A DNA stretch of 46,534 bases from Patescibacteria group bacterium (lineage in GTDB: Bacteria; Patescibacteriota; Doudnabacteria; UBA920): NCBI GenBank assembly GCA_038065175.1, contig JBBTRN010000018.1:1445-47978 (forward strand). The letters are read 5' to 3'. This document shows positions 4,596-45,989 of the stretch, in pieces (within the stretch, counting starts at the first letter, position 1; each line of letters begins with the position of its first letter). Both the position numbers and the translations under genes were made by a program. The notes beneath the pieces are model-generated. The model was not told the DNA's origin and did no database searches. It saw only the letters and a list, made by a program, of their open reading frames with translations.

Positions 4596-4784
4596 ATGTC
4601 CGTATTAGATAAAATCAGGAATAAACCCCACGCTGAAAAAGTGCGTTTAATCTGGATTATTTGCATAATTACCGGGGTTATACTGGTAGTGGTATGGATC
4701 TTTACCAGTAAAATTAATAAAAATATGCCGAAAGACACCAGATTGTTTCAATCAGCCAAAGAAAGTATAAAAAATTTAAAGTAA
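4596..4784 (+). CDS. small single-TM membrane protein
   Basis: 62 aa ORF with one hydrophobic helix; stop overlaps the gyrA start (TAATG). Confidence 0.7.
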
Positions 4785-14872: not shown

Positions 14873-15130
14873 ATGTTTTATTGCTACATTCTAAAAAGCA
14901 AAAAGGATAACAATCTTTATATTGGTTCAACAACTGACTTAAAGAGAAGGTTTCTTGAACACAATTCTGGTTTAGTAAGGTCTACAAAATCACGATTGCC
15001 CCTTAAGCTAATCTATTATGAGGCGTATTCTGCTGAAGCAGACGCCCGCCATAGGGAACATAATTTAAAACTGCGTTCTAAGGCTTTAGCTCAGTTACTA
15101 AAACGGATTCCTAAATCCATGCAGGGATAG
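14873..15130 (+). CDS. GIY-YIG nuclease family protein
   Basis: FYCYILKS...LYIGSTTDLKRRFLEHN...LIYYEAY...ARHRE. Confidence 0.9.
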   Translation: MFYCYILKSKKDNNLYIGSTTDLKRRFLEHNSGLVRSTKSRLPLKLIYYEAYSAEADARHREHNLKLRSKALAQLLKRIPKSMQG

Positions 15131-15132
15131 AC

Positions 15133-15232
15133 CCCCACACCAAAGTTTCCATTTGATGCACCGTAATTTTAGTAAAATTATCTAAAATCTATTACCCACC
15201 GATGAATTTTTATCAGAGCTTTGGTGTGGGGG
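15133..15232. mobile_element. non-autonomous CCC...GGG element with TAGAC direct repeats
   Basis: ACCCCCACACCAAAG (15131-15145) / CTTTGGTGTGGGGGT (15219-15233) perfect inverted repeat; TAGAC at 15128 and 15233. Confidence 0.75.
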
Positions 15233-15261
15233 TAGACAAGTCCTAAAATATCTGCTATAAT
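15233..15261 (+). promoter_or_regulatory. sigma70-type promoter with extended -10
   Basis: TAGACA-17 nt-(TGC)TATAAT. Confidence 0.65.
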
Positions 15262-18227: not shown

Positions 18228-18274
18228 TAAAAAACTGATAATTGATAATAAATAACTTATAACTAAAACAAACT

Positions 18275-18640
18275 ATGGCGTATAAGTTTAGAGACTGGCA
18301 AGTTTACAAAGACGCCAGAAAATTAAGACAAGAAATTAACCGACTTACTAAAACTTTTCCCAAAGATGAGCAATATATTCTTATTGACCAAATTAGAAGA
18401 GCCATTCTGTCGGTAATTTTACAAATTGCTGAAGGCTCTAACCGAAAAACTGAGAAAGACAAAAATCTCTTTATTAATCGGGCTTTGACATCTTTGGATG
18501 AGGTTATTGCTTGTTTTGATTGCGCTTTTGATGATAACTACATTTCTAAGGAAAAATTGGAAGAATTGGAGACTAAAATTGAAAATGTTTCTAGGCAGCT
18601 TAGAGGTTTTGCAAAGTATATTTCCAAAAGTTATAAGTAA
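18275..18640 (+). CDS. four-helix-bundle protein (23S rRNA IVS protein-like)
   Basis: FPKDEQYILIDQIRRAILSVILQIAEG...ALTSLDEV. Confidence 0.9.
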   Translation: MAYKFRDWQVYKDARKLRQEINRLTKTFPKDEQYILIDQIRRAILSVILQIAEGSNRKTEKDKNLFINRALTSLDEVIACFDCAFDDNYISKEKLEELETKIENVSRQLRGFAKYISKSYK

Positions 18641-18670
18641 TTAATTATAAATTATTAGTTAAAATTATTT

Positions 18671-20744: not shown

Positions 20745-21701
20745 TTAATTATTTGGGTGTTTTAAAATCCAATCCAAGGCCTTGGATATTTGATCAAATG
20801 AGCTAAAAATTAAGTATGAATGATGCAAGCTGTGTGGGCTCCTGTCTAGCTTAGGAAACAAACTTACATCAAAGTTAATTTTTTTTACGTTTTGGCTGCC
20901 AGCATTATTTAATTCCCCAAAAGAGGATATCAACCCTGCGCCAATGACTAAATTTTTACCACCCTCCTTAATAAATCCAAATTCCATACTATTCCACCAC
21001 AACCGTTCAGCCATAAATTGTTGACCCTCTTCCTTGCATTTCATAAAAACTTGACCAAACTTTTGAGCCAGTTCTTTTATTTCAGGATTTACAAGCATAG
21101 GTAAGTGGCCAAAGATATCATGAAAAATATCCGGTAGCGGAATAAAATCCAACTCTTTCATAGTTCGGATATAATTGGTTCGCATAATCCGTCTTTGCGA
21201 CAAAAAATGAAACCACGGCGCGTCTTCTGCATACTGTATGTTAGTAACTTCAGTTTTCCATTTCGCAACAGTAAACAGGCGTTCGTCCAACTCTTCTAAA
21301 TTAGGCAGTTTATTTGGGTTAATATTTAACAATTTTAGCCCTTCCCAAAACCACGGATGAACCTTACCCTTTAAACTCTTAAACTGACGCTCAAATAATT
21401 TTTGCCAAATAACATGAGCTTTAGGGTCAGTTATGGACAAAACTTTTAAATCACTAAATTTTGTACTGTAAAATTTACTGTCCAAAAGCTTAGCCAGCTG
21501 CCAGTCTTTTTCAGTTACTATATCTCCGGCATCGTGGGTGGTAAGCAGGACATTAATCTTGTTGCTTTTTAATGACCAGTCAGGATCATGACCCAAAGCC
21601 AAAATACTCGGCTTACAAGCAGCCACAAAATCCAATGCCTCCTGGTTATTGGAAAAAACGAACGTCTTAACAAGTTTATTATTTTGATTCTGCCATTGCA
21701 T
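20745..21701 (-). CDS. pterin-4a-carbinolamine dehydratase fused to phenylalanine 4-hydroxylase
   Basis: N-terminal PCD-like region (KTFVF, GHDPD, LTTHDAG); C-terminal PDIFHDIFGHLPML, MEFG and GAGLISSFGE with the His/His/Glu iron ligands. Confidence 0.85.
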   Translation of the reverse strand: MQWQNQNNKLVKTFVFSNNQEALDFVAACKPSILALGHDPDWSLKSNKINVLLTTHDAGDIVTEKDWQLAKLLDSKFYSTKFSDLKVLSITDPKAHVIWQKLFERQFKSLKGKVHPWFWEGLKLLNINPNKLPNLEELDERLFTVAKWKTEVTNIQYAEDAPWFHFLSQRRIMRTNYIRTMKELDFIPLPDIFHDIFGHLPMLVNPEIKELAQKFGQVFMKCKEEGQQFMAERLWWNSMEFGFIKEGGKNLVIGAGLISSFGELNNAGSQNVKKINFDVSLFPKLDRSPHSLHHSYLIFSSFDQISKALDWILKHPNN

Positions 21702-21729
21702 ATTTATTTATTCTTTAATAATTAAAAAT

Positions 21730-21761
21730 AAAAAAACCACCTGGCAGAGCCAAGCGGTTTT
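21730..21761 (-). terminator. attenuator terminator upstream of the hydroxylase
   Basis: minus strand AAAACCGCTTGGC-tct-GCCAGGTGGTTTTTTT. Confidence 0.75.
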
Positions 21762-21782
21762 GAAAATAAAAGCAAATTCAAA

Positions 21783-21848
21783 TTACCGCGAACTCTGCAA
21801 AGAGGGACGGTAAGTATACATATTAAATTTAACGGTAACTTTTTTCAT
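21783..21848 (-). CDS. attenuator leader peptide MKKVTVKFNMYTYRPSLQSSR
   Basis: 21 aa with F-x-x-Y-x-Y, lying between the promoter and alternative hairpins. Confidence 0.7.
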   Translation of the reverse strand: MKKVTVKFNMYTYRPSLQSSR

Positions 21849-21858
21849 ATCTGTTCGT

Positions 21859-21887
21859 ATAATATAGTAATAGACCTAATTTGTCAA
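21859..21887 (-). promoter_or_regulatory. promoter of the leader/hydroxylase transcript
   Basis: minus strand TTGACA-17 nt-TATTAT. Confidence 0.7.
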
Positions 21888-21923
21888 TTAGAACACAAAA
21901 AAGTTATAATCTTAGGACATGAG

Positions 21924-22198
21924 TCCCGTTAGAGAAACCCTATATATTATACTTATATTTTACAAAGCTTCAAAGACGGGAAGCAATATACAGGCTGTTG
22001 CAAAAATTTACGGAAGCGTTTCAAACAGCATAACAATAACCTAGTGCCATCAACCAAAGGTCGAGCTCCATTTGTTTTAATATATTATGAAGCGTGTTTA
22101 AATAAAGATGACGCTTTTGCCAGAGAACGCTATCTTAAAAGCGGGATGGGCAAACGCTATTTAAAAAATCGTTTGAAACGCTTCCTTTCTCTAACGGG
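21924..22198. mobile_element. CCC...GGG element carrying a GIY-YIG gene, inserted at the PBP start codon
   Basis: ATGAG-TCCCGTTAGAGA ... TCTCTAACGGG-ATGAA. Confidence 0.8.
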
Positions 22199-22202
22199 AT
22201 GA
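21942..22202 (+). CDS. GIY-YIG nuclease family protein (ATA in place of a start; possible pseudogene; not in the ORF track)
   Basis: YYTYILQSFKDGKQYTGCCKNLRKRFKQHN...LIYYEAC...AFARERYLKSG. Confidence 0.8.
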   Translation: MYYTYILQSFKDGKQYTGCCKNLRKRFKQHNNNLVPSTKGRAPFVLIYYEACLNKDDAFARERYLKSGMGKRYLKNRLKRFLSLTG

Positions 22203-25075
22203 AGATTTACAGCTATCGCATAAAAAAACGCTCTCACGGGTCAATTAAAACCTCGAAATTCAAATTCCCAAAATTACCCTTTCGGCTACCGTTTAAATTT
22301 AAGCGGCCGAAGAATGTTTGGACATTAATTTTTCGCGCGTTTGCCATGGGCATTTTATTTATTGCCCTGCTGTTTTTATATTATGCCAAAGACCTGCCGG
22401 ATCCCAACAAATTAATTGAAAGGGATGTGGCCGAAAACACCAAAATCTTTGACCGGGAAGGCAAATTGCTTTATGAAATACACGGCGAGGTAAAACGCAC
22501 ATTGATAGAACTTGACCAAATCCCTGAATACGCAAAACAAGCGTCAATTGCCATTGAAGATAAAGATTTTTACAACCACCATGGTTTGTATTTTAGGGGG
22601 ATTGCCCGTTCGCTCTTCCGCTATGTTATTAACCTTGGGCCCGAAGGGGGCGGAGGCAGTACTTTAACCCAACAATTTGTCAAAAACGCTATTTTAACCA
22701 ATAAAAAAACTTTTGGACGAAAAATTCCCGAGGCAATTTTAAGCTTAGAAATAGAAGCCAGGTTTTCCAAAGAAGAAATCCTAAAACTCTACTTAAACGA
22801 AATCCCCTACGGACGCAATGCCTACGGCATTGAAGCCGCGGCCTTTGGTTATTTTGGCAAATCTGCCAACGAGTTAAGTTTGGCCGAAAGCGCTTACCTG
22901 GCGGCATTACCCCAAGCGCCGACATTCTATAACCCCTTAGGCCCGAACCGAGCCGCTTTGGACGCAAGGAAAGACCGGGTCCTTGCGGCCATGCGAGAAC
23001 AGGGCTACATTAGTCCCGAACAGGAAAAAACCGCAACCGAAGAAAAAGTGGAATTTTTAAAAACCAAGACCGCCATTTCCGCGCCGCATTTTGTGTTGAT
23101 GGTGCAGGATTATTTAGCTAAAAAGTACGGAGAAAAAACCCTGGCTGAAGGCGGGCTTAGAGTTTATACTACCCTGGACTCCGGCCTGCAAAAAATTGCG
23201 GAAGAAGCGATTAAAGCCAGGGCAGAAACTAATTCCACGAAATACAATGCCCAAAACGCCAGCCTGGTTGCCGTTGACCCTAAAACCGGACAAATTTTAG
23301 CCCTGGTGGGAAGCAAAGATTACTTTGGGGAGAGTTTCCCTAAAGACTGCAGACCAGGAAAAACATGCCTGTTTGAGCCCAACGTGAACACCGCTCTTTC
23401 GCAGCTCCAACCCGGCTCAAGTTTTAAGCCTTATGTCTACGCAACGGCTTTCGGCAGGGATTATAAATTCGCCCCTGCCGCCATGCTTATTGATGTAGTT
23501 ACCAACTTCGGCACTTTTAACGGTAAAAACTATGCGCCTGAAAACTATAACAACAGAGAGCATGGCCCGGTTTCCATGCGTTCTGCATTGGCAGGCAGTT
23601 TGAACATCCCGGCGGTAAAAACCCTGGCCTTGGTTGGGGTGGACAAAGCAGTCCAGGTGGCGCGGGATTTAGGCATAACCAGCCCCATGGCTGACTGCGG
23701 CCTGTCTTTAGTTTTGGGAGGATGCGAAGTGAGATTAATAGACCACGTGGCCGCGTTTGGGGTTCTGGCCAACGGGGGCGTCAAAAACGAAAAAACCGCC
23801 ATATTAAAAGTCCTGGACAAGAACGGAAACACACTGGAAGAATTTGAGGAAAATCCAAAAGAAATTTTGGATCCCCAAGCCGTGTACCAACTTATAAGCA
23901 TAATGACGGACAACAACGCAAGAAGCTTTGTGTTTGGGGCCAACTCGCCTTTGACTTTGCCGGGCAGGGAAGTAGCGGCAAAAACCGGCACAACGCAAAA
24001 TTGGCACGACGGCTGGACTATGGGCTTTACGCCTTCTTTAGCCGCCGGAGTCTGGGCTGGGAATAACTGCGGGGGGGCGAACCCTAAATGCCTTATGAAA
24101 GAAGGGGCGGACGGCGTTTTTGTAGCAGCGCCTATCTGGAACCAATTCATGAAAGAAGCGCTAAAAGACAAACCTGCCGAAAGGTTCAAAGAACCCCCGG
24201 GGATTACGCGAATTATTGTTGACGCAACTTCCGGCAAACTCCCTACTGCCAACAGCCCCTCTACCAAAGAGGAGGTGTTTGCCGATTACAACCGGCCGCA
24301 AGATTATGACAATATTCACATTAGCTTGGCCTACGACTCTTTAACCAATCTACCCGCTGACCCTACAACCCCGCCTGAACGAATCACTTACAAAAACTTC
24401 ACGGTTTTCCAAAGCGAACAACCGCAAAACCCCGGCTGGGAAAATCCTGTAAGGGATTGGGCGATTAAGAACGGATACCTCTACCCTTCCAGGGTGCCTA
24501 CAAACCCAACCCAACCCGGATTTGGGGAAATTTCCGCCAGGATCACTAGCCCGTCAGACGGGCAACAAATTGAATCTTTGCCGTTTTTTGTGGGGGTTGA
24601 GGCTCAAGGCACGAACCCAATTGCCAGAGTGGATTTATTTATTGACGGGCTTTTTATTAAAAGTATGAATACCGCGCCCTACCGTTTTGAGGTCAATAAA
24701 ATCCTTTCCAATGGCCAGCATGTGGTGGCCGCAAAAGCATTGGACGCTGCCGGTAATATTGCGGATGCCAGTATAATAATTAGTTTCGGATCCCAGGGCG
24801 GTCTGGAATTAACCGACCCGGCGTATAACACATTAGCCCTATTCCCGATTACCCTGGCCGCGCAAAGCGCAAAAAAGTACGAATTAGTGAATTTTTATTA
24901 TTTGGAAGGTGAAATTGAAAAATTAATCGGGAAAGCGGAAAAGATAGAAAATGTGGGAGGGGGCTTCCGCTACAGCTTAGTTTGGGACAACGCGCCCGAT
25001 ATAAAAGAATTTTGGGTTTTTGCCAAAACTCCTGACGGGCAGGAGACAAAAAAAGTGAAGATAACAGTACCATAA
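22199..25075 (+). CDS. class A penicillin-binding protein (PBP1A family) with C-terminal Ig-like domain
   Basis: TM anchor, EDKDFYNH and GSTLTQQ transglycosylase motifs, GSSFK and KTGT transpeptidase motifs. Confidence 0.93.
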   Translation: MKIYSYRIKKRSHGSIKTSKFKFPKLPFRLPFKFKRPKNVWTLIFRAFAMGILFIALLFLYYAKDLPDPNKLIERDVAENTKIFDREGKLLYEIHGEVKRTLIELDQIPEYAKQASIAIEDKDFYNHHGLYFRGIARSLFRYVINLGPEGGGGSTLTQQFVKNAILTNKKTFGRKIPEAILSLEIEARFSKEEILKLYLNEIPYGRNAYGIEAAAFGYFGKSANELSLAESAYLAALPQAPTFYNPLGPNRAALDARKDRVLAAMREQGYISPEQEKTATEEKVEFLKTKTAISAPHFVLMVQDYLAKKYGEKTLAEGGLRVYTTLDSGLQKIAEEAIKARAETNSTKYNAQNASLVAVDPKTGQILALVGSKDYFGESFPKDCRPGKTCLFEPNVNTALSQLQPGSSFKPYVYATAFGRDYKFAPAAMLIDVVTNFGTFNGKNYAPENYNNREHGPVSMRSALAGSLNIPAVKTLALVGVDKAVQVARDLGITSPMADCGLSLVLGGCEVRLIDHVAAFGVLANGGVKNEKTAILKVLDKNGNTLEEFEENPKEILDPQAVYQLISIMTDNNARSFVFGANSPLTLPGREVAAKTGTTQNWHDGWTMGFTPSLAAGVWAGNNCGGANPKCLMKEGADGVFVAAPIWNQFMKEALKDKPAERFKEPPGITRIIVDATSGKLPTANSPSTKEEVFADYNRPQDYDNIHISLAYDSLTNLPADPTTPPERITYKNFTVFQSEQPQNPGWENPVRDWAIKNGYLYPSRVPTNPTQPGFGEISARITSPSDGQQIESLPFFVGVEAQGTNPIARVDLFIDGLFIKSMNTAPYRFEVNKILSNGQHVVAAKALDAAGNIADASIIISFGSQGGLELTDPAYNTLALFPITLAAQSAKKYELVNFYYLEGEIEKLIGKAEKIENVGGGFRYSLVWDNAPDIKEFWVFAKTPDGQETKKVKITVP

Positions 25076-30111: not shown

Positions 30112-30175
30112 GTTCTAGTGATTAGTGCTAAGTGACTAGTGACTAGAAAAATCTAATCACTAAACACTAATCACT
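30112..30175. repeat. empty inverted array of TAGTGAY 7-mers
   Basis: tagtgattagtgctaagtgactagtgactag / ctaatcactaaacactaatcact between the yidC stop and jag start. Confidence 0.75.
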
Positions 30176-30881
30176 GACCACTTGCCTGCGCTCGCTGGCG
30201 GTTAATAATATACTGCTGGCCTATGCCAAAAAGGGTGGTTACCACCCAATAAAGAGGCAAGCCCGCGGGAAAATTCCAGGCGATTACCACGCTTACAACC
30301 GGCAGCATATACGTCATTTGCATAGACATAATTTTCTGCGTTGAGTCTGTCGGGCCGCTACCGCCTTTCGGCGCCATTAATTTAGACTGCCAAAACTGGG
30401 TTAAGCCTGCCAATACGGCCAGGACATGGCTGGGTTTGGACAAATCTAATAAACCCAGGAACATTGGACTTAAATGCTCCGGGCGCTTAATAAAACTATA
30501 AAGCCCGGTTAGTTCCCCGGTTAAAGCCTGGGTAAAAACAAAATACAAAGAAATTAAAATTGGCAGCTGGATGAGTAAAGGCAGGCAGGAAGAAAAAGGA
30601 TTTACTTTATGCTCTTTGTACAAGTCCATCATTGCTTTTGCCTGCGCCTGCTGGTCATTTTTATATTTCTCCCTAATCTCGTTCATCTTCGGCTGTATGG
30701 CCGTCATGGCCGCCTGGCTCTTGAGGGATTTGTGGAAAGAGGGGGCGAGGGCCAAGCGGATAAGCATGGTTAAAAGGATTATAACCACGCCAATATCCGG
30801 GATAATGTTATAGAACAAAATTAAAACATTCAACAACACCGGCACTAAAATAAAATTTTTGGAAAAAGGATTTAGGATCAT
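30171..30881 (-). CDS. yidC: membrane protein insertase
   Basis: IQPKMNEIREKY, SCLPLLIQLPI and PAGLPLYWVV. Confidence 0.93.
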   Translation of the reverse strand: MILNPFSKNFILVPVLLNVLILFYNIIPDIGVVIILLTMLIRLALAPSFHKSLKSQAAMTAIQPKMNEIREKYKNDQQAQAKAMMDLYKEHKVNPFSSCLPLLIQLPILISLYFVFTQALTGELTGLYSFIKRPEHLSPMFLGLLDLSKPSHVLAVLAGLTQFWQSKLMAPKGGSGPTDSTQKIMSMQMTYMLPVVSVVIAWNFPAGLPLYWVVTTLFGIGQQYIINRQRAQASGQ

Positions 30882-30914
30882 AAATAAATAACTGTTTTTT
30901 CTCCCAAAGACTCT

Positions 30915-31169
30915 TTAGTCACTTTGGGCCACATCAATCGAAGGTTCAACCCAAGGATTACATCTTAATATTCTTTTTAACCCCAACCGCAAACCGCGCA
31001 GCACGCCAAAACTTGCCACCGCGTTTTTTGTATACTCGCTGCAAGAAGGATAGTGTCGGCAAAACCCGTAAGGGTAATTTGCCCTAAACACCCCATGGTC
31101 AGGGGAAATTGTAATTTGATAAAAAGCTATTAACTTAATAATTATTTTTTTTGCGTGAAAATTATTCAT
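30915..31169 (-). CDS. yidD: membrane protein insertion efficiency factor
   Basis: YQITISP, CRHYPSCSEY and RILRCNPW. Confidence 0.92.
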   Translation of the reverse strand: MNNFHAKKIIIKLIAFYQITISPDHGVFRANYPYGFCRHYPSCSEYTKNAVASFGVLRGLRLGLKRILRCNPWVEPSIDVAQSD

Positions 31170-31503
31170 GCTTATAAAGACCGGCTGTTATTAACAATTT
31201 TTTTAAGCTTAGTACCATGTACTTTTCCTGCTCCATCGCCACCTTAGGCTTTAATACCAAAATATAATCCCCGGACGCGAGATTTGTCATATTCAATCTT
31301 ACAAATTCCCTTATTATCCGCTTTAAGCGGTTTCTTTTGACAGCCCTTTTAGAAACCTTGGTGGAAACTACAGCCGTAAACCTTAAGGAGCCTCCCGAAT
31401 TTAAAAATTTCAAATTAAAAAAGGGGCTAAAAAAACTCCGCCCCCGCGCAAACACCTTTTTAATATCCCGGTCTTTGGCGAGACGGTTTTTTTTATTAAG
31501 CAT
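31162..31503 (-). CDS. rnpA: ribonuclease P protein component
   Basis: MLNKKNRL and KVSKRAVKRNRLKR. Confidence 0.92.
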   Translation of the reverse strand: MLNKKNRLAKDRDIKKVFARGRSFFSPFFNLKFLNSGGSLRFTAVVSTKVSKRAVKRNRLKRIIREFVRLNMTNLASGDYILVLKPKVAMEQEKYMVLSLKKLLITAGLYKHE

Positions 31504-31579
31504 AAATTTAACAAAATCTGGAATCAACAAGGCTGGCTTGTACCGGTTCAACCATTATTTCGTTTTCCGGTTTAGGAGT

Positions 31580-31714
31580 TTAGACTGTGAGTTTCTTGCG
31601 CCCCTTTTGCCTGCGTCTTCCCAAAACTGCGCGCCCCGTCCTGGTTTGCATGCGTTTAAAAAATCCATGGCGGGTTTTTCGTTTTTTTACTTTTGGCTGA
31701 TATGTTCTTTTCAT
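31580..31714 (-). CDS. rpmH: 50S ribosomal protein L34 (not in the ORF track)
   Basis: [44 protein letters not shown]. Confidence 0.95.
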
Positions 31715-31828
31715 CCTGTTAGAAATTAAAATAATTATTGATAAAAATTGTGTATGCGTTCCTTAATCCCTTTTTACCCTTTAAAACAAACAGTGGGAAT
31801 ATGATCCAAAATTTGCTTTCTAACGGGA
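31715..31828. mobile_element. empty CCC...GGG element inserted at the rpmH start codon
   Basis: minus strand ATGAA-TCCCGTTAGAAA ... TTTCTAACAGG-ATGAA. Confidence 0.8.
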
Positions 31829-31841
31829 TTCATACCGGCTA

Positions 31842-31870
31842 ATTATAATAAAAAAACTGGCCGGGGTCAA
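31842..31870 (-). promoter_or_regulatory. rpmH operon promoter
   Basis: minus strand TTGACC-17 nt-TATAAT. Confidence 0.75.
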
Positions 31871-31899
31871 CCCTGCTAATAATTTTTTATTTGGCCACA

Positions 31900-32012
31900 C
31901 CTTTTCCACATTTAATCAACAAGGCTAACCAAACTCCTTTTAATCATGGGTACTTATACCTAGTTTACATGTTGATAACCCCTCTGGTAGAATACCTCCA
32001 CTGATACACAGA
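31900..32012. promoter_or_regulatory. DnaA-box cluster upstream of dnaA
   Basis: TTTTCCACA 31902, TAATCAACA 31913, TGTTGATAA 31970 and TGATACACA 32002 (near matches to TTATNCACA). Confidence 0.55.
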
Positions 32013-32096
32013 TGGTTGCTAATGGCGCTAATTTTCTGTTGAGGATGCCAGGGTATTATTTGTGTTATTGATGTTTAATTAATGCATCTGTGGCCT

Positions 32097-33455
32097 ATGA
32101 ATAACCAACAACTCTGGCAAGCCATACTTGGAAGCCTGGAAGTTTCATTGAGCAAAGCCAATTTTAATACTTGGTTTAAAAATACGAGCATTGTTGAAAG
32201 AGGTGCTAATTTTATAGTACTTAATGTGCCCAGTGCATTTAACCGGGACTGGATAGCAAACAAGTACCACCAGGAAATGCTTAAAAGCCTAAAAACGCTC
32301 ACCCCCGAAATCCGCGAAATAAAGTATCGGATAGGGGGCTCAAAAGACCCACAAACCCCACCATCCCAACCCTACACCAACCGTGAAATAAAAAGCTTGG
32401 AAAATTCCAGGTCTAAGACCTCCCCAAGCAACCACACCTCAACCCTAAACCCCAAGTATGTTTTTGAAACTTTCATTGTGGGTAAAAATAACGAGCTAGC
32501 TCATGCCGCGGCCTCCGCAGTGGTCAAAAGCCCTGGAGGACAATACAACCCCTTGTTTATTTACGGCGGGGTTGGTCTGGGAAAAACCCATCTTATGCAG
32601 GCGGTTGGACACAAAATTTTAAACTCCTTAGGCACAAACAAATTATTGTATGTTACCTGTGAGAAGTTCACCAACGACTACATTGAATCCCTTAGGGAAA
32701 AACGAATGGATGATTTTAAAAAAAACTACCGCGACTTGGGTGCGCTCCTGGTTGACGATATCCAATTTTTAGCCGGCAAAGAAAGTACCCAGGAAGAATT
32801 CTTCCACACCTTTAACGAGTTAAGGGATAAGGGAAGGCAGATAATTATCACCTCTGACCGCCCACCAAAGGAAATACCCGCAATTGAGCAAAGGCTTATT
32901 TCCAGGTTCGAAGGCGGAATGGTTGCCGATATCCAAGCCCCAGATTTAGAAACCAGAATGGCGATTCTAAAAAATAAAATGGAGAAGCGCCCCTCTCAAA
33001 TTTCCGAAGAGATACTTTTTTACATTGCGGAAAATATACAAAGTAATGTAAGGGAGCTTGAGGGTGCCCTAAACCGACTTGTTGTTTACCAACAAATGGA
33101 AAACAAAGGTTTGGTGCTCGAACAGGCAAAAAACATCTTAACCAGCCTTATTTCCTCAAAAAAACGGATGGTGTCGCCAAAAAAAATCGCCGATGTGGTT
33201 GCGGAATTTTACAATATCCAATTCGAGGATCTAATAAAACAATCGAGGAAAAAAGAGTTTGTAAAACCCAGGCAGATTGCAATGTATTTGATACGAAAAG
33301 AGTTGGAAAATTCATTTCCTTCAATTGGGGATTTTTTCGGGGGCCGGGACCACACTACTGTAATGCACGCGGTTGATAAAATCAATAGTATGGTTTCAAA
33401 CAAAATACAATTCAAACAAGAGGTTGATTTAATCCTTAATAAGTTGTTAATATAA
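32097..33455 (+). CDS. dnaA: chromosomal replication initiator
   Basis: YNPLFIYGGVGLGKTHL, LLVDDIQF, NVRELEGAL and GRDHTTV. Confidence 0.97.
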   Translation: MNNQQLWQAILGSLEVSLSKANFNTWFKNTSIVERGANFIVLNVPSAFNRDWIANKYHQEMLKSLKTLTPEIREIKYRIGGSKDPQTPPSQPYTNREIKSLENSRSKTSPSNHTSTLNPKYVFETFIVGKNNELAHAAASAVVKSPGGQYNPLFIYGGVGLGKTHLMQAVGHKILNSLGTNKLLYVTCEKFTNDYIESLREKRMDDFKKNYRDLGALLVDDIQFLAGKESTQEEFFHTFNELRDKGRQIIITSDRPPKEIPAIEQRLISRFEGGMVADIQAPDLETRMAILKNKMEKRPSQISEEILFYIAENIQSNVRELEGALNRLVVYQQMENKGLVLEQAKNILTSLISSKKRMVSPKKIADVVAEFYNIQFEDLIKQSRKKEFVKPRQIAMYLIRKELENSFPSIGDFFGGRDHTTVMHAVDKINSMVSNKIQFKQEVDLILNKLLI

Positions 33456-33638
33456 TAGGGATGGTTGTAAGACAAAAATCTGGTAACTCAAAAGGGGTTT
33501 TACCGCCAACAAAATATCCCCTGCGGTGGTGTGTATAAAACCCACCCAAAACCCCACCAACCACTGATTATTTTGTAGATATTGACATTCCCACACCCCT
33601 TATTATTACTTTGTTTTAAATACTTATATTATACTATT
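33456..33638. other. oriC candidate (dnaA-dnaN intergenic region)
   Basis: DnaA box TGTGTATAA 33530, ATTCCCACA 33587 followed by CCCC and trio-like TATTATTACT in an AT-rich tract; the + strand looks G-richer to the right. Confidence 0.65.
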
Positions 33639-34721
33639 ATGAAAATAATATGCACCCAAGAAAATTTACACTCCGGTCTGGGTATTGCTGTAAAAATAAT
33701 TTCAGCAAACAATACCCTCCCAATCCTTAATAATATTTTACTCAAAACCGAAAATGGACAATTAAAAATTTCTTCAACCAACCTTGAGGTGGCAATTAAT
33801 ACAAAGATTAGATGTAAAATTGAAGAACAGGGACAAATAACAGTTGGGGGGAAAACCCTTAACGAATTAATTAACACCCTGCCGAATGAAAACCTGGAAC
33901 TATACACTGATAAAAACAATTTGGTAATAAAAACAGAAAGCCAGGAATTTAAAATAAAAACACTACCCGTGGAAGAATTCCCCCTCATACCAGAAACCCA
34001 AAGCAATAACACAACCAGTTTTGAGCAGGAAAAATTAAAGCAGGCAATCAACCAAGTTGTATTTTCCGCGTCGCAAAACCAAACCCAACCCGAAATTTCA
34101 GGAATTTATCTCAGTTTAAAAGGTGGTGAAGCAAGATTTGCGGCAACAGACAGATATAGGCTTGCGGAAGCGATTATTCCGGCAGAGGGTTTGGCAGAGG
34201 TAATAATCCCGCAAAAAACAACATTGGAAGTTGCCAGAATTTTGTCTTTAAGACCGGAAAAAGTAGAGGTTGGGTTTTCGGAGAACCAAATATTTTTCAC
34301 AATAGGACAGACCGATGTTATTAGCAGGCTTGTGGATGGGCAATATCCGGATTATAAAAACATTATCCCGGATAATTTTAATTCCACAATGGTGGTGGAA
34401 AAAAATAAACTACAAAATGCTTTAAAAGCCAATGCGCTGTTTTCCCAAAATTCCAGCAGTGTGAGAATGGCTTTCGCGGGGGGCAAATTGACGATCTCTT
34501 CGGAGTCAGAGGGATTGGGGAGCGGGATTGTTGATATCCAGGCAAAAGTCGAAGGGGAAGAAGGGAGTTTGTTGTTAAATTTTAAGTACGTTTTGGATTT
34601 TTTGGCACAACTACAAGGGGGCTCTGTGGTTATTAAAGTTGTAAACGACACCTCGCCGGCAGTGTTTGTCCCGGAAGGGCGAAGCGATTATTTGTATTTA
34701 GTTATGCCGATTAAGATTTAA
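33639..34721 (+). CDS. dnaN: DNA polymerase III beta clamp
   Basis: LPILNNILL, STNLE, ATDRYRLA, GQYPDY and LVMPI. Confidence 0.95.
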   Translation: MKIICTQENLHSGLGIAVKIISANNTLPILNNILLKTENGQLKISSTNLEVAINTKIRCKIEEQGQITVGGKTLNELINTLPNENLELYTDKNNLVIKTESQEFKIKTLPVEEFPLIPETQSNNTTSFEQEKLKQAINQVVFSASQNQTQPEISGIYLSLKGGEARFAATDRYRLAEAIIPAEGLAEVIIPQKTTLEVARILSLRPEKVEVGFSENQIFFTIGQTDVISRLVDGQYPDYKNIIPDNFNSTMVVEKNKLQNALKANALFSQNSSSVRMAFAGGKLTISSESEGLGSGIVDIQAKVEGEEGSLLLNFKYVLDFLAQLQGGSVVIKVVNDTSPAVFVPEGRSDYLYLVMPIKI

Positions 34722-34804
34722 TGGTTAGTGAGGGCCGGTTTTAAGTCAAGATAAAGCTGGTAGTTTTCATGCCGCTGCAACCCGAGGGTTTTTCAGTTCT
34801 GCGT

Positions 34805-35902
34805 ATGCGTATAAAAAACATTAAAATTAAAAATTTTAGAAATTACCCGGATTTGGATTTGGAAATTACGGGTGATGTGGTGGTATTAACCGGGCCTAAT
34901 GCTGTGGGGAAAACTAATCTTTTGGAATCCGTTTATTTTGCTTCGCTTTTTAAATCTTTTCGCGATGATACGGAATTCATATTTTTGAAGGACTCGAATC
35001 GGTTGGAGCTGTCCGTTGATATTGAAAAAGAGGGGAGCTCCCATGCCCTGGAAATATTTTTAGAGAGAAGGGATAAGGTGTATGCCAATTTTCGCATAGA
35101 CGGGGTAAAAAAGAAAAGGAAGGAAGCGCAGGGCTATGTGAGTGTTGTGGTTTTTGATCCTACAGACGTGGAGATGTTCAGCCGCCCGCCGGAAGCGAGG
35201 CGGAAATATTTAAACATGGTGCTGTGCCAAAAAAGCCCTGCGTACCTGGAAATTTTGGGGGATTATAAAAAAGTCTTGTTCCAAAAGACCAAATTGCTTT
35301 TGGCAGTGAAACAGGGTTTGGGGTCGGGCGAGGACTTGGCCGCCTGGAATCAACAGCTTGTGGATTTGGGGAGCGAGATAGTTTTAGAGAGGCGAAAGTT
35401 TATTAATTTTCTGAATAATAATATTTCTGAAGTTTACACTACCATTTCCGGGTTTCACCGGCCGGTGGAAGTCTGGTACGACGGATTTGAGGGCGAGGAC
35501 AAAGAGGATTTAGGCGCACAGTTTTTTAGCAGGCTGGAAGCGCTAAAAAATAAAGAAGGGCTTTTGGCTTCCTGTTTAGTAGGCCCCCACAGGGACGATT
35601 TTTCCTTAAAAAGCGAAGGGCTTTTTTTGCCCCCATTTTCCTCCAGGGGGGAACTAAGAAGCCAGGTGCTGGCATTAAAAATTTTGGAGCTCGAGTATTT
35701 AAGCAAGGGGGAAGAAAAACCAATACTGCTTTTAGACGACGTGCTTTCGGAGTTGGATGACACAAGACGCGAATATTTACTTAAGTTTTTGCAGGGGAAA
35801 TTCCAGACATTTATTACCACCACCATGGCGTTGGATATGCCGGCCCAGCATATAAGTTTGTCGCCAGCCGAGGAAGTGGAGGAGGTCGGCCAAGCCCAAT
35901 AG
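34805..35902 (+). CDS. recF: DNA replication/repair protein RecF
   Basis: NFRNY, GPNAVGKTNLLE, GPHRDD, SRGE and LLLDDVLSELD. Confidence 0.95.
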   Translation: MRIKNIKIKNFRNYPDLDLEITGDVVVLTGPNAVGKTNLLESVYFASLFKSFRDDTEFIFLKDSNRLELSVDIEKEGSSHALEIFLERRDKVYANFRIDGVKKKRKEAQGYVSVVVFDPTDVEMFSRPPEARRKYLNMVLCQKSPAYLEILGDYKKVLFQKTKLLLAVKQGLGSGEDLAAWNQQLVDLGSEIVLERRKFINFLNNNISEVYTTISGFHRPVEVWYDGFEGEDKEDLGAQFFSRLEALKNKEGLLASCLVGPHRDDFSLKSEGLFLPPFSSRGELRSQVLALKILELEYLSKGEEKPILLLDDVLSELDDTRREYLLKFLQGKFQTFITTTMALDMPAQHISLSPAEEVEEVGQAQ

Positions 35903-38191: not shown

Positions 38192-38230
38192 AATTGATGA
38201 TTATTTATTAATAATTGATAACTGAAAATT

Positions 38231-38599
38231 CTAAGGTTTGTTGTGATTAGTGATATATTTATCCAGCCCACGAAGTTGTTTGCCGATGTTTTCGGTTTTT
38301 TCCATAAAATATATGTGCTGATCTTGGCTAATATAGCCATCGTCAAATGCAGAATCCAGACACGCAACAACTTCAAAAAGAGAAGTTAAGGAGCGGTTTA
38401 TAAAAACGCTTTTGTCTTTTTCTGTTTTTCTTTCAGACCCTTCGGCTATCTGCAGAAGTACAGAGAGCATAGCTCGCCTCGTTTGGTCGACTAACAGGTA
38501 TTTTTCTTCAACAGGGTAGGCTATTAGAATTTTGTTTACTTCCTTTTTCAGTGTACGTGCGTCTATATACACCTGCCAAGATTGAAACCTAAAAGCCAT
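38231..38599 (-). CDS. four-helix-bundle protein, close paralog of 18275-18640
   Basis: WQVY, YLLVDQTRRAMLSVLLQIAEGSERKTEKDK; flanked by a perfect 16-bp inverted repeat (38207-38222/38605-38620). Confidence 0.9.
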   Translation of the reverse strand: MAFRFQSWQVYIDARTLKKEVNKILIAYPVEEKYLLVDQTRRAMLSVLLQIAEGSERKTEKDKSVFINRSLTSLFEVVACLDSAFDDGYISQDQHIYFMEKTENIGKQLRGLDKYITNHNKP

Positions 38600-38639
38600 A
38601 GGCGGTTATCAATTATTAATTATCAATTATCAATCAGCT

Positions 38640-45454: not shown

Positions 45455-45541
45455 CTCCATCTACGGATTACGGATAAGATACCAATATACCGATGAAGTA
45501 ATCCGTATACCCGTAATAAATTGGTAATTGGTAGATAATAT

Positions 45542-45919
45542 ATGACTGAGCTTTTGCATAAAGAATTAAGCGGGCAAATTATTGGCGCCCTATTTGAAGT
45601 GCATAATAATTTAGGTAACGGGCTTTTAGAAAAATATTACCAAAGAGGTCTGGCGGCTGAATTTCAGAAACGTGGCGTTAGTTTTCAGGAACAAGTTTCG
45701 GTTTCGATGTCTTATAAAGGTAAATCAATAGGTCGGCGGGTATTAGATTTTCTGGTTGATGGGAAGGTGGTTGTAGAAATAAAAAAAGACAATTATTTTT
45801 CCAGGCAGCATATTGAGCAGGCAACCAGTTATCTAAAAGCGTTAAATTTAGAACTTGCTATTTTGGCAAACTTTACAGGCGGGGGAGTAAAGTTTAAGCG
45901 CATATTAAATTTGTATTAG
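45542..45919 (+). CDS. GxxExxY protein (PD-(D/E)xK-like)
   Basis: LGNGLLEKYY, DFLVDGKVVVEIK, QATSYL and ANF; flanked by 32-bp inverted arms. Confidence 0.9.
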   Translation: MTELLHKELSGQIIGALFEVHNNLGNGLLEKYYQRGLAAEFQKRGVSFQEQVSVSMSYKGKSIGRRVLDFLVDGKVVVEIKKDNYFSRQHIEQATSYLKALNLELAILANFTGGGVKFKRILNLY

Positions 45920-45989
45920 TCATCCATTCGTATATTGGTAAAGAATCGGTAATCTGTAGATAACCCGCGGGAATAAGCGGTATTTTGTA

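Follow-up and report, generated by a model that had tools for sequence, protein, structure and literature searches.

A GIY-YIG gene between inverted repeats at the start of a PBP1A gene

The window, meaning the whole stretch of 46,534 nucleotides of a Patescibacteria group bacterium that was analysed here, carries a gene for a class A penicillin-binding protein (PBP1A) whose start codon begins at the last base of a short element with perfect terminal inverted repeats. The parts of the locus, with the paired arms assigned to two helices termed P1 and P2, are as follows.

21881..21910, + strand: promoter of the host PBP1A gene, with -35 TTGTCA (21881-21886), an 18-nt spacer and -10 TATAAT (21905-21910); 11 of 12 consensus matches
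21919..21921, + strand: ancestral leaderless PBP1A start, left of the element; ATG 8 nt after the -10 box, relatives having TATAAT-N6-10-ATG
21919..22044, + strand: 41-aa out-of-frame ORF from the captured ATG, crossing the left arms of P1 and P2
21920..21923, + strand: left copy of the 4-bp target repeat, TGAG; in the family, flanking 4-mers are identical in 33/103 loci
21924..22199, + strand: whole element, 276 bp, bounded by perfect 14-nt inverted repeats
21924..21937, + strand: left terminal inverted repeat TCCCGTTAGAGAAA, the 5' arm of helix P1; 14/14 complementary, with covariation
21942..22202, + strand: GIY-YIG nuclease frame, 86 codons plus TGA; sole gene of the element
22012..22026, + strand: 5' arm of the internal helix P2; perfect 15-nt inverted repeat with 22171-22185
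22171..22185, + strand: 3' arm of helix P2, directly adjoining the right terminal repeat
22186..22199, + strand: right terminal inverted repeat, the 3' arm of P1; exact complement of the left repeat
22199..25075, + strand: class A penicillin-binding protein, the host gene; Transgly 1e-56, Transpeptidase 5e-17 (Pfam)
22200..22203, + strand: right copy of the 4-bp target repeat, TGAA; the TGA within it is the nuclease stop

As described in the initial annotation, TATAAT at 21905-21910 is followed after 8 nt by the ATG at 21919-21921 ahead of the element, and the nuclease stop (TGA, 22200-22202) overlaps the PBP1A start (ATG, 22199-22201). The right terminal repeat itself codes for the C-terminus of the nuclease (..SLTG), and its final A is the A of the PBP1A ATG. 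The annotated inverted repeats are present, but are complementary over 14 of 14 positions and not over 12. A repeat also exists where a duplication of ATGA had been proposed, but if one counts outward from the repeats, TGAG lies on the left and TGAA on the right, an imperfect duplication that matches at three of four positions, and the repeat of the family is 4 bp long. The second perfect inverted repeat of 15 nt, P2, was absent from the annotation.

The annotation saw no transposase or integrase in the window, and none of these families was detected among the 41 window ORFs scanned at E<=1e-5 or, in a separate search of four proteins, at E<=0.01. An Rfam scan of 21650-22350 gave no score near any gathering score, and a Pfam search with the 41-aa ORF (21919..22044) was without match. 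The motif CCCGTTAGAG, with at most one mismatch, occurs at six sites in the window compared to 1.63 expected, a count that 0 of 100 shuffles reached. Minigenes elsewhere in the window (23S_rRNA_IVP and PDDEXK_3) are likewise bracketed by inverted repeats, of 30-37 nt. An integron attC cassette was also considered and rejected, there being no second core site after the right repeat.

Across the family alignment P1 is 98.7% paired and P2 79.4% paired, and 11 of the 15 P2 pairs have changed on both sides. The covariation score was 0.303, compared to 0.146 for shuffled alignments (reached in 0 of 500) and 0.05-0.10 for slid ones, and both helices lie within the minimum-energy fold (z=-5.8 as RNA, z=-3.8 as DNA). 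No strand signal was seen in P2, with 32 G-T to 24 A-C cells. Both P2 arms encode K-R-F motifs. The codons of these motifs come close to complementing themselves, and coding could therefore account for part of P2 as a by-product.

Filled and empty alleles of the insertion site

The gene at 22199..25075 was the sole match to a PBP query in this genome. Its promoter block is kept in the same-genus genomes G002 and G003, and this host promoter now drives the element. Among 30 PBP loci examined, a GIY-YIG gene lies upstream of PBP only in that of the window itself, which supports the annotated picture of a minimal mobile cassette at a near-leaderless start codon. Removal of the element restores, as had been anticipated, the arrangement of relatives, where a -10-like hexamer precedes the PBP ATG by 6-10 nt in 11 of 15 loci (leaderless type). 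The comparison of PBP upstream regions that the initial annotation had suggested yielded the empty allele, the PBP locus of G001 being a clean empty site (TATAAT-N8-ATGAAAG). At the 5' end of guaB, members of the genus carry an insertion, G004 carries a different one and another four relatives have none, and filled and empty alleles of one site were accordingly seen at both the PBP and the guaB locus. No arm-like sequence was found at the empty PBP sites of relatives.

In four sets of assembled contigs, we found no contig joining across the element at its flanking repeats and no empty-site contig, while one contig in X7 spans the whole focal element with 0 differences. A single, weak joint at 21937->22182 was seen in set X9 (likeness limit 88, side 21), and it most likely stems from a different copy of the repeat. 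Contigs that break off at the repeats are uninformative.

The reading frame of the focal copy

The GIY-YIG frame is interrupted by a TAG at 21930-21932 and open from 21933. Homology begins at an ATA codon, and this frame offers neither ATG nor GTG nor TTG ahead of the domain, the ATG at 21919 lying in another one. In the nearest relatives the nuclease start reads ATG AGT CCC GTT AGA GAA AAA TTT ATG TGG. In the focal copy, one nucleotide fewer separates the ATG from the domain, and the internal ATG has become ATA. Because one base is lost and the internal ATG is now ATA, the focal nuclease is without a canonical start, and the focal element is, as judged from this frame, probably a decaying, non-autonomous copy. 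A programmed frameshift that would rescue the ORF was rejected, as no canonical slippery heptamer is visible at 21933-21942.

Further copies in the same genome

Two further copies with the same anatomy were identified in this genome (C29 and C45), with the repeats TATG and TGAA. The intact own-genome copies encode nucleases of 92-102 aa. With 38-49% amino acid identity, the copies in this genome are old, and there is thus no sign of recent activity here. The host genes of C29 and C45 have no close orthologs among 25 relatives, and the only homolog found for them, of LysE, is 53% identical and starts ATGAAT without an element. Five ORF-less elements of 95-118 bp with the same repeat type are also present, and two of these have 4-bp duplications (TCAA and TTAA). 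Other cassettes of this genome lie within broken tRNA genes and contain a complete tRNA gene with the matching anticodon, and the GIY-YIG copies of C15 are flanked by a 22-nt duplicate of the 5' part of a tRNA. A paralog resembling the Ssn nucleases, with flanking repeats of about 40 nt, lies at C45:17195-17410.

The genome encodes one tyrosine recombinase and two Y1_Tnp proteins. Searches for DDE_Tnp_1 and rve in the genome were without match, and the own-genome motif searches gave no match near either Y1 gene. The search with PF13843 (piggyBac-type) was uninformative, since its controls were silent too.

A family of repeat-bounded elements across bacteria

Relatives numbered 255 among genome contigs and 509 among metagenome contigs, and the best 80 of each set were taken further. 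Identities of up to 74-80% were seen across CPR, Omnitrophota, Desulfobacterota, Bacteroidota and others; in relatives with genomes near 1 Mb, the matches per genome ranged from 0 to 14. The 163 loci, which were picked by similarity to the three start-codon copies and include redundant entries (repeated junctions L046=L138, L136=L140, L163=L164=L166, L078=L082, L079=L192), comprise 125 with terminal repeats, 26 without a repeat and 12 at contig edges, giving terminal repeats in 125 of 151 loci away from contig edges. In each element, a gene for a single-domain GIY-YIG nuclease of the Slx1/UPF0213 type, about 90 aa long, lies between two terminal inverted repeats of 13-14 bp that begin with YCCNGT. 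The repeats are complementary over 13 positions, the variable ones of which covary (94-96% compared to 31-59% when shuffled), and the repeat type tracks the tree of the GIY-YIG protein (19 changes; shuffled mean 60.8, minimum 53, n=97).

Identical flanking 4-mers occur at 33 of the 103 anchored loci, whereas 1000 shuffles gave 9.3 such loci on average and never more than 16; the 4-mers were TGAA (20 loci), TGGA (4), TGAG (3), TATG (2) and four others. Over all copies the 4-bp flanking repeat varies among TGAA, TGAG, TGGA, TATG, TTAA and TCAA. The remaining 70 anchored loci have no flanking duplication, and many of them have longer, deliberately imperfect ends (TTCA/TAAA or TTTA/TGAA). Tandem junctions of the order right repeat, TGAA, left repeat were observed at L046, L131, L138, L041, L122 and L153. 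In one genome of Galbibacter, two copies share a 402-bp unit with 92% identity, part of which supplies two different epimerase-type genes with a replacement N-terminus. Plasmid and phage collections gave no protein match at E<=1e-8.

Position of the elements at translation starts

An ORF of at least 80 aa starts at the junction in 28 of the 33 loci with identical 4-mers; in the controls this was so for 12.1% of positions drawn at random and for 22.1% when random ATGAR sites were taken. For 25 of these 28 starts, the start codon consists of the last base of the element and TG, and in 20 of the 33 loci the nuclease stop TGA is formed by the first 3 nt of the right flanking repeat. The host ORFs are unrelated genes, and for 22 of the 25 scanned a Pfam match, such as RuvX, MurB, topoisomerase I, L10 or YchF, begins within the first 15 residues. 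At the left end, the upstream ATG is in frame and open into the nuclease in 25 of 34 elements of the ATGRR type, where the left repeat abuts an ATG, and an internal ATG is present in only 12 of the 34. A life within the translation start is evident in the statistics of frames and overlaps, and its function is inferred.

The annotation had also suggested tabulating the distance to -10 boxes. Of 37 elements, 11 have a -10-like hexamer at 6-12 nt ahead of the ATG that they abut, compared to 6 of 45 control ORF starts; this is suggestive of a leaderless context but does not amount to a rule, and it is no defining feature of the family. The association with start codons may owe much to selection, and since only insertions at the 5' end are both tolerated and expressed, targeting need not explain it.

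The nuclease and its relation to known systems

The focal protein matched PF01541 (GIY-YIG) with 52.3 bits (cut-off 22.6, E=7.4e-14). Residues Y5, Y16, G18, R26, H30, E50 and E62 are invariant in 30 sequences, and we take them to be the Tyr of GIY, the Tyr-x-Gly, Arg, His and Glu that are catalytic in the GIY-YIG superfamily. Its predicted structure (pLDDT 91.8) consists of three strands and three helices and contains the beta-beta-alpha-beta-alpha core of GIY-YIG proteins. The best fold match in the PDB was 1ZG2, followed by Slx1 (6SEI, 6SEH, 7CQ2) and At-HIGLE (7WME) with TMq values of 0.61-0.69; UvrC (0.50) and I-TevI (0.46) were weaker, and 1ZG2 was the sole PDB match by sequence (E=1e-5). 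The predicted fold is closest to that of Slx1-type structure-specific nucleases. Slx1, UPF0213 (YhbQ-like) and At-HIGLE have the minimal domain and the invariant Y, G, R, H and E in common with the focal nuclease, which is unlike Slx1 in that the latter has a partner, Slx4, and a RING domain. In NCBIfam no family scored above its cut-off for the focal protein; TIGR01453 reached 29.4 bits (cut-off 56.05) over the first 83 of its 215 profile positions only, with no further domain. Standalone bacterial GIY-YIG members are regarded as vertically inherited housekeeping genes and not as mobile cassettes in the consulted part of PMC1564403.

The nearest published relatives of the focal nuclease are the Ssn ssDNA nucleases. 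According to the consulted sections of Chenal et al. (2025; PMC11893778), Ssn proteins are single-domain GIY-YIG nucleases that cut ssDNA beside hairpin repeats flanking their own genes, and the authors noted an IS-like look and drew the comparison with IS200/IS605 and REP/RAYT. As far as these sections go, Ssn and the focal family have in common a lone GIY-YIG domain of about 90 aa (86 codons in the focal copy), bracketing by inverted repeats that vary together with the protein, and repeats that also occur without the gene. In contrast, Ssn genes have a self-contained hairpin (NTS/SRM) on each side, whereas the focal element has one arm per end with the gene as the loop, and the 4-bp duplication, the start-codon site, the borrowed ATG and the overlap of stop and start are not described for Ssn in these sections (PMC11893778). 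The focal element is without self-folding SRM hairpins on its flanks, and its arms pair across the gene. The comparison with Ssn at the sequence level was made with the Ssn-like paralog of the same genome only, to which the focal protein is 35% identical, and no Ssn structure was found in the PDB by sequence with either the focal protein or this paralog as query.

Among other mobile DNA, the IS200/IS605 and REP/RAYT elements are small, have hairpin ends and gene-less miniatures, act on single strands and depend on flanking tetranucleotides. Their transposases are HUH tyrosine enzymes that work through covalent intermediates and leave no duplication, whereas the only protein of the focal element is a hydrolytic GIY-YIG nuclease. 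Correia and Rickettsia palindromic elements have terminal inverted repeats and short duplications, are co-transcribed with their neighbours and survive in frame in coding regions, as the guaB copy does; we know of no linked protein gene and no start-codon rule for either of them.

Proposed mechanism and alternative explanations

Taken together, the region is very probably a mobile GIY-YIG element inserted in a start codon, with an expression design that borrows this start; mobility itself is suggested by sequence comparison. The element would have entered a 4-bp TGAA overlapping the PBP1A start (ATGAA) and duplicated it, and the host promoter and original ATG, at PBP1A a leaderless 5' end, now open the element. 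In intact relatives, ATG-R-repeat reads in frame into the nuclease, whose ORF exits through the right repeat and stops at the TGA of the duplicated TGAA, while the last base of the element and TG give the host gene a new start codon, ATG or GTG. Termination-reinitiation would then yield the host protein, as would melting of the P1 and P2 helices, which when folded keep the host AUG at the stem base. In the focal copy the 41-aa out-of-frame ORF crosses both left arms and would thus still unmask the PBP start.

The opposite reading, that the ORF is a resident of the locus whose structured leader regulates PBP1A, could draw on the very stable, conserved helices that hold the PBP AUG at the stem base and on the overlapping stop and start codons. 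It is scarcely credible, as the ORF is absent from 29 of 30 PBP loci, the same type of element precedes unrelated genes in many phyla, and duplications and miniature copies exist. Also very improbable is the initial proposal that a host tyrosine recombinase of the Xer type moves a circular copy with a dif-like site of two 10-bp arms and a 6-bp spacer. Head-to-tail joining of the ends does give a palindrome around ATGAGT, the genome has one tyrosine recombinase gene, and the tandem junctions have the order expected of joined ends, although re-insertion into a regenerated ATGAA explains them equally well. However, each boundary has a single arm of 13-14 bp, and nothing resembling an arm is seen in empty targets; the flanking repeat varies in sequence and spans 4 bp, and a fixed overlap of 6-8 bp was not seen; the targets are dozens of different genes. 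The site in the window, beside the PBP gene and about 10 kb from dnaA, does not correspond to a chromosomal dif, and identical types of ends are found in bacteria from many phyla, between which the Xer/dif systems would presumably differ.

Somewhat less remote, but still improbable, is that an unlinked transposase, for instance a Y1 HUH protein or one not known, acts on the repeats in trans with the GIY-YIG gene as cargo. The ORF-less and tRNA-carrying copies with the same ends, the repeat-bracketed 23S_rRNA_IVP and PDDEXK_3 minigenes and the two Y1_Tnp genes would be in line with this. On the other hand, no protein other than the nuclease accompanies the ends from phylum to phylum, neither DDE_Tnp_1 nor rve was found in the genome, the motif has no match near the Y1 genes and HUH elements make no duplications; the repeat type also follows the GIY-YIG tree (19 changes against a mean of 60.8), though linkage alone would give the same. 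The strongest of the alternatives, yet unlikely, is a spread of the homing type, in which the nuclease breaks an empty target and repair copies the element in from a filled one, the flanking repeats being microhomology or carried-along sequence. GIY-YIG proteins are classic homing nucleases, and I-TevI and Seg resemble the focal gene as selfish GIY-YIG genes between or inside host genes. The common unit of the Galbibacter copies with its replacement N-terminus, the tRNA-carrying cassettes in broken tRNA genes of the same anticodon and the tRNA duplicates at C15 would also fit. The flanks of the start-codon copies are nevertheless alike over 4 bp only and their hosts are unrelated genes, and the 86-aa catalytic domain, with its low TIGR01453 score, comes without any DNA-binding domain, unlike I-TevI and Seg with their long ones. 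Homing neither needs nor explains terminal inverted repeats or ORF-less miniatures with 4-bp duplications, and to our knowledge free-standing or intron-borne homing endonucleases of the GIY-YIG type have neither terminal inverted repeats nor target duplications.

Because of the Slx1-like fold and the Ssn relatives, and because the tyrosine-recombinase idea is unsupported, self-driven mobility is the better, still unproven, model. We give an even chance to the element's own nuclease recognising the folded ends, which would be a hairpin or cruciform from P1 with P2 stacked on top, and cutting with a 4-nt stagger, after which host repair or ligation would complete the move. Since GIY-YIG enzymes cut DNA by hydrolysis, with no covalent intermediate, the nuclease alone cannot join DNA, and joining of the element ends would need host functions. 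A simple cut-and-paste model does not account for the longer, imperfect ends at many of the 70 loci (of 103) that have no duplication. More tentatively, the elements might represent a new superfamily of prokaryotic DNA transposons, with a Slx1/Ssn-like GIY-YIG nuclease of about 90 aa as sole protein, specialised in translation starts and using a folded single-strand or cruciform intermediate (P1 and P2) and 4-bp duplications.

Implications

The family is large, spread over many phyla and apparently undescribed. We know of no insertion-sequence family that has a GIY-YIG nuclease as its sole enzyme. Our literature search found no paper on repeat-bounded GIY-YIG elements at start codons, and the supplementary tables of Ssn homologs in PMC11893778 might include members. 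If our reading is true, these elements would form an additional class of mobile DNA, one with many copies among uncultured bacteria, and would offer a testable link between families of hairpin repeats and a mobilising enzyme. Many orphan genes annotated as 'GIY-YIG nuclease family protein', as well as mis-called gene starts, would be explained, and the compact pairs of nuclease and site may become tools, as proposed for the Ssn enzymes. The parasite would enter essential genes harmlessly by replacing the start codon that it destroys, borrowing promoter, ribosome entry and ATG and giving back translational coupling together with a new ATG or GTG, and could in this way sit harmlessly before essential genes in very small genomes.

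Structure and surroundings of the focal element

The focal element occupies 276 bp at the start codon of a gene for a class A penicillin-binding protein (PBP) of 958 aa, and the locus carries the following features:

21881-21886, + strand: -35 box TTGTCA, 18 nt before the -10 box
21905-21910, + strand: -10 box TATAAT, 8 nt before ATG 21919
21919, + strand: upstream ATG, then AG, directly left of the element
21924-21937, + strand: left terminal repeat TCCCGTTAGAGAAA, a 14-mer perfectly complementary to the right one
22186-22199, + strand: right terminal repeat TTTCTCTAACGGGA, followed by TGAAG...
22200-22202, + strand: stop codon TGA of the GIY-YIG gene, overlapping the PBP ATG at 22199-22201

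The reading frame between the terminal repeats encodes a GIY-YIG domain (Pfam E=7.4e-14). The layout of TATAAT, 8 nt, ATG and repeats described in the initial annotation was correct, as were the overlap of the nuclease stop with the PBP start and the lack of a transposase or integrase gene, these families giving no match at E<=1e-5 among 41 scanned window ORFs or at E<=0.01 among four scanned locus proteins. It had missed that the nuclease frame lacks a canonical start, with TAG at 21930-21932 and no ATG, GTG or TTG ahead of the domain, ATG 21919 opening a different frame of 41 codons. Also missed was another inverted repeat, perfect over 15 nt (22012-22026 / 22171-22185); since it directly abuts the 14-nt right terminal repeat, 29 consecutive bases at the 3' end are paired.

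The gene upstream (20745-21701, minus strand) encodes a pterin-4a-carbinolamine dehydratase domain fused to an aromatic amino acid hydroxylase domain, and in relatives with a readable upstream gene the PBP-adjacent gene is tyrS instead. An intergenic block at 21774-21830 (AAATTCAAATTACCGCGAACTCTGCAAAGAG...), flanked by the upstream gene's terminator and the PBP promoter, is conserved in the same-genus genomes G002 and G003 and had no match in Rfam. The replication-origin cluster (30171-35902: yidC and rnpA, both on the minus strand, then dnaA, dnaN, recF) lies about 10 kb from the element. Elsewhere in the window, gyrA is seemingly split into 4784-6664 (topoisomerase IV/gyrase A domain and first propeller blades) and 6761-7249 (remaining C-terminal blades), with a gap of about 100 nt. 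Other repeat-bracketed minigenes stand between housekeeping genes at 18233-18660, 38193-38634 and 45459-45961; two carry 23S_rRNA_IVP genes (inverted repeats of 32 nt, 88%, and 30 nt, 87%) and one a PDDEXK_3 nuclease gene (37 nt, 78%), and such minigenes seem to be commonplace in this genome.

Insertion at the ancestral PBP start codon

The PBP gene was present in all 41 related genomes searched, and among 30 fetched loci (about 1.5 kb upstream each) only the window's own had a GIY-YIG gene upstream of it. In 11 of the 15 upstream regions inspected from relatives, the PBP ATG is preceded at 6-10 nt by a -10-like hexamer, and therefore the PBP gene was ancestrally leaderless or nearly so, in agreement with the near-leaderless insertion site initially proposed. 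The expected empty allele was likewise found, the same-genus genome G001 reading TATAAT-N8-ATGAAAG. This arrangement thus identifies ATG 21919 as the old PBP start, with the element placed within ATGA|A, and by this comparison of upstream regions we regard the element as an insertion at the ancestral PBP start codon. In G002 and G003, about 130 nt of non-coding DNA separate the same promoter from the PBP ATG, and in G003 this leader begins immediately past TATAAT with CCCGTTAGAGAAAC, which matches the left repeat exactly; the long leader may therefore be the remnant of a decayed element. The leaders of G003 (L012) and G002 (L013) also contain, some 40 nt ahead of the PBP ATG, ATTCCCGCTTTCGCGGGAAT, which fits the dRS3 pattern ATTCCC-N8-GGGAAT as quoted in the paper on the Ssn family of GIY-YIG nucleases (PMC11893778).

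Related elements in the own genome and public collections

The own genome holds 10 matches to the focal nuclease. The copies on contigs C29 and C45 have inverted repeats of their own (CCCAGTAATACAAC...) with compensatory differences between the two, and are flanked by TATG/TATG and TGAA/TGAA. In both, the left copy of the flanking repeat is part of an ATG reading in frame into the nuclease (in C45 no start other than this captured ATG is present), and the right copy restores a start codon, ATG or GTG, to a glycosyltransferase gene and a LysE-type gene. Among related genomes of about 1 Mb, 0 to 14 protein-profile matches were found per genome, many with internal stops, and 31 of 41 genomes had at least one. 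Other GIY-YIG genes observed were one in the window (14873-15130; 48% identical to the focal protein, own ATG, without terminal repeats), directly followed by a perfect 15-nt hairpin pair (15131-15233), and an Ssn-like paralog (YYVYIMTN...) at G000:C45:17195-17410 (L009:1441-1731), which lies between inverted repeats that are imperfect, about 40 nt long and built around the perfect 16-nt core TTGTCATTGCGAGGAG.

A search with an alignment of three proteins gave 255 relatives on genome contigs (one genome per species) and 509 on metagenome contigs; the 80 best from either set, together with three own copies, made up the 163 loci analysed. Identity to the focal protein reached 74-80% among these best 80, in MAGs labelled Komeilibacteria, Magasanikbacteria, Saccharibacteria, Omnitrophota, Desulfobacterales, Gammaproteobacteria, Bacteroidota and others. 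Terminal repeats were found in 125 loci, while 12 lay at contig edges and 26 had no repeat scoring at least 10. The ends could be anchored on a conserved CCNG in 103 loci (96 distinct end pairs), where complementarity extends over 13 positions from YCCNG and covaries at every variable one (94-96% matched vs 31-59% shuffled); the four bases outside the repeats are non-complementary. Repeat type tracks the protein tree (19 changes, where shuffling gave 60.8 on average and never fewer than 53; n=97), which indicates that the protein moves together with its ends as a single unit, a result that linkage alone would also give.

Flanking repeats and host start codons

Flanking 4-mers were identical in 33 of the 103 anchored loci (shuffled mean 9.3, maximum 16 in 1000), in a set of loci related to each other and picked by similarity to start-codon copies, with the junction repeats L046=L138, L136=L140, L163=L164=L166, L078=L082 and L079=L192 counted separately. 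The identical 4-mers were TGAA (20), TGGA (4), TGAG (3), TATG (2) and CGCA, TAAG, TTTA and TTTT (1 each); because the right-hand TGA is also a conserved stop codon, the non-TGAA pairs are the cleaner evidence of a repeat copied from the target. In 20/33, the right repeat copy begins with the three bases of the nuclease stop.

In 28 of these 33 loci an ORF of at least 80 aa starts at the junction (controls from the same loci: 12.1% of positions and 22.1% of ATGAR sites chosen at random), and 25 of the 28 use a start codon made of the element's last base plus TG. A Pfam scan of 25 junction ORFs gave matches for 22, nearly all beginning at ORF residues 1-15 and profile position 1-8, and covering diacylglycerol kinase, sortase, RuvX, succinyl-CoA ligase, response regulator, sugar nucleotidyltransferase, MnhB, MurB, topoisomerase I (x2), radical SAM, AbiEii, several glycosyltransferases, YchF, CofD, ribosomal protein L10, AAA ATPase and PrgI. 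Judged by these profile alignments, the junction ORFs start at the true N-termini of unrelated genes. With an alternative definition of the class, an ATGRR directly against the left repeat (34 loci), a junction ORF was found in 31 and a 4-5-bp direct repeat in 29; the upstream ATG was in frame and open into the nuclease in 25, and an internal ATG was present in only 12. A -10-like hexamer precedes the abutting ATG by 6-12 nt in 11/37 elements vs 6/45 control starts, and therefore a leaderless context like the focal one is common, not a rule. In some lineages (e.g., L051, L059) the right repeat contains AGGAGG, 9 nt before the rebuilt ATG. Junctions of right repeat, TGAA and left repeat (L046, L131, L138, L041, L122, L153) suggest re-insertion into a regenerated target.

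The own genome also contains five ORF-less elements of 95-118 bp with CCCCGTTAGAAAA-type ends, two of which show clean duplications (TCAA, TTAA). The TTAA copy (98 bp; G000:C31:7602-7699, L215:303-400) lies at codons 8/9 of guaB and severs the old N-terminus MKPIIEAL, an element-internal ATG reading via the right repeat (..SFLTG) into ..TFDDVLLVP; this insertion is kept in frame in G001-G003. A different ORF-less element sits exactly on the guaB start in the related genome G004 (ATGA|TCCCGTTAGAGAT...ATCTCTAACGGGA|TGAT), and the site is empty in G008, G027, G009 and G026.

Other insertions were observed in tRNA and protein genes. Cassettes sharing the CCCCGT...ACGGGG ends of these elements at G000:C2:18275-18392 and G000:C44:4176-4279 carry intact tRNA Val-CAC and Thr-TGT, each nested in a broken tRNA gene of the same anticodon, and further end fragments surround the C2 locus. 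At G000:C15:3357-4146, two identical GIY-YIG copies with scaffold Ns between them each have, on their upstream side, 22 nt that duplicate the 5' part of the following tRNA-Gln gene, which looks like insertion into a tRNA gene with its 5' end restored. In one Galbibacter sp. isolate genome, two 402-bp units (L087:1434-1834, L091:1433-1834; 92% identical) sit in the N-terminal coding region of two different epimerase-type genes, each with a replacement N-terminus ending ..LLITGGAGFIG.

Folding and probable decay of the focal copy

The predicted minimum-energy fold of the focal element holds P1, the helix of the paired terminal repeats, and the adjacent internal helix P2, both as RNA (-80.9 kcal/mol, z=-5.8) and as DNA (z=-3.8). 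P2 lies at the same place in 22/103 loci (at least 13/15 positions complementary). In an alignment of 40 elements, P1 was 98.7% paired with 5/13 pairs changed on both sides, and P2 79.4% paired with 11/15 so changed; the covariation score was 0.303 vs 0.146 shuffled (0/500 reach it) and 0.05-0.10 for slid partners. Part of the P2 signal may be coding, because K-R-F motifs, with their nearly self-complementary codons, are encoded by both arms, and P2 gave no strand signal (G-T vs A-C cells 32 to 24).

The nearest relatives (76-80% aa identity) read ATG AGT CCC GTT AGA GAA AAA TTT ATG TGG TAT..., compared to which the focal copy is one base shorter between ATG and domain and has the internal ATG changed to ATA. 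The remainder of its frame is intact, and P1 and P2 are both perfect. The focal copy is thus probably decaying, and its nuclease may be made poorly or not at all. In the predicted fold, the A and U of the PBP AUG are paired at the base of P1. The 41-codon ORF of the captured ATG still runs across both left arms, and therefore its translation would release the 3' segment of 29 nt from pairing and make the PBP AUG accessible.

Possible modes of movement and relation to known systems

A structure model from 30 sequences (pLDDT 91.8) matched the bacterial UPF0213 protein 1ZG2, At-HIGLE (TMq 0.69) and Slx1 nuclease domains (TMq 0.61-0.64, rmsd 2.2-2.5 A), and more weakly I-TevI (0.46) and UvrC (0.50); by sequence, 1ZG2 was the only structure matched (E=1e-5). 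According to the titles of the matched structure entries, Slx1-type enzymes cut branched DNA. The Ssn paper describes single-domain GIY-YIG enzymes of about 94 aa that cut ssDNA beside hairpin repeats flanking their genes, an arrangement its authors liken to an insertion sequence (PMC11893778). The element enzyme is nearest to Slx1/UPF0213, and on the functional side to Ssn. A proposed action of the element's own nuclease on the folded ends is favoured by its Slx1-like fold, by the example of Ssn, by helices that covary and by the joint inheritance of protein and ends.

The host tyrosine recombinase acting on a dif-like site, as proposed in the initial annotation, could be supplied by the one tyrosine recombinase gene of the genome. 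However, each boundary has a single arm, empty sites have none, the flanking repeat is 4 bp and variable, target genes are many and the same ends recur across phyla, all of which speak against this model; Xer/dif elements also differ from the focal element in their defining features. DDE_Tnp_1 or rve had no match in the 1.03-Mb genome, and two Y1_Tnp (HUH) transposase-like genes (G000:C30:4318-4548, G000:C4:5087-5395) had no element end motif near either in own-genome motif searches. A simple cut-and-paste move is difficult to reconcile with a GIY-YIG enzyme, which can only hydrolyse, and with the 70/103 loci lacking a duplication; among these, the ends bear the extension TTCA/TAAA in 10 loci or TTTA/TGAA in 9, and perfectly complementary extended ends are nearly absent (about 1 in 20). 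Instead of a duplication, some lineages have a replacement 5' end of the host gene, as in the two Galbibacter copies and the tRNA-in-tRNA cassettes, a pattern more like homing. The focal element itself does not belong with I-TevI-type homing enzymes.

Ssn genes have self-folding hairpins on each side, a feature that the focal element lacks. In the literature searched, we found no account of GIY-YIG elements that are bounded by repeats and sit at start codons with 4-bp duplications. In conclusion, the focal element works like an insertion sequence, plus a translationally coupled upstream gene, and there is a reasonable, if less than even, chance that it stands for a new transposon superfamily.
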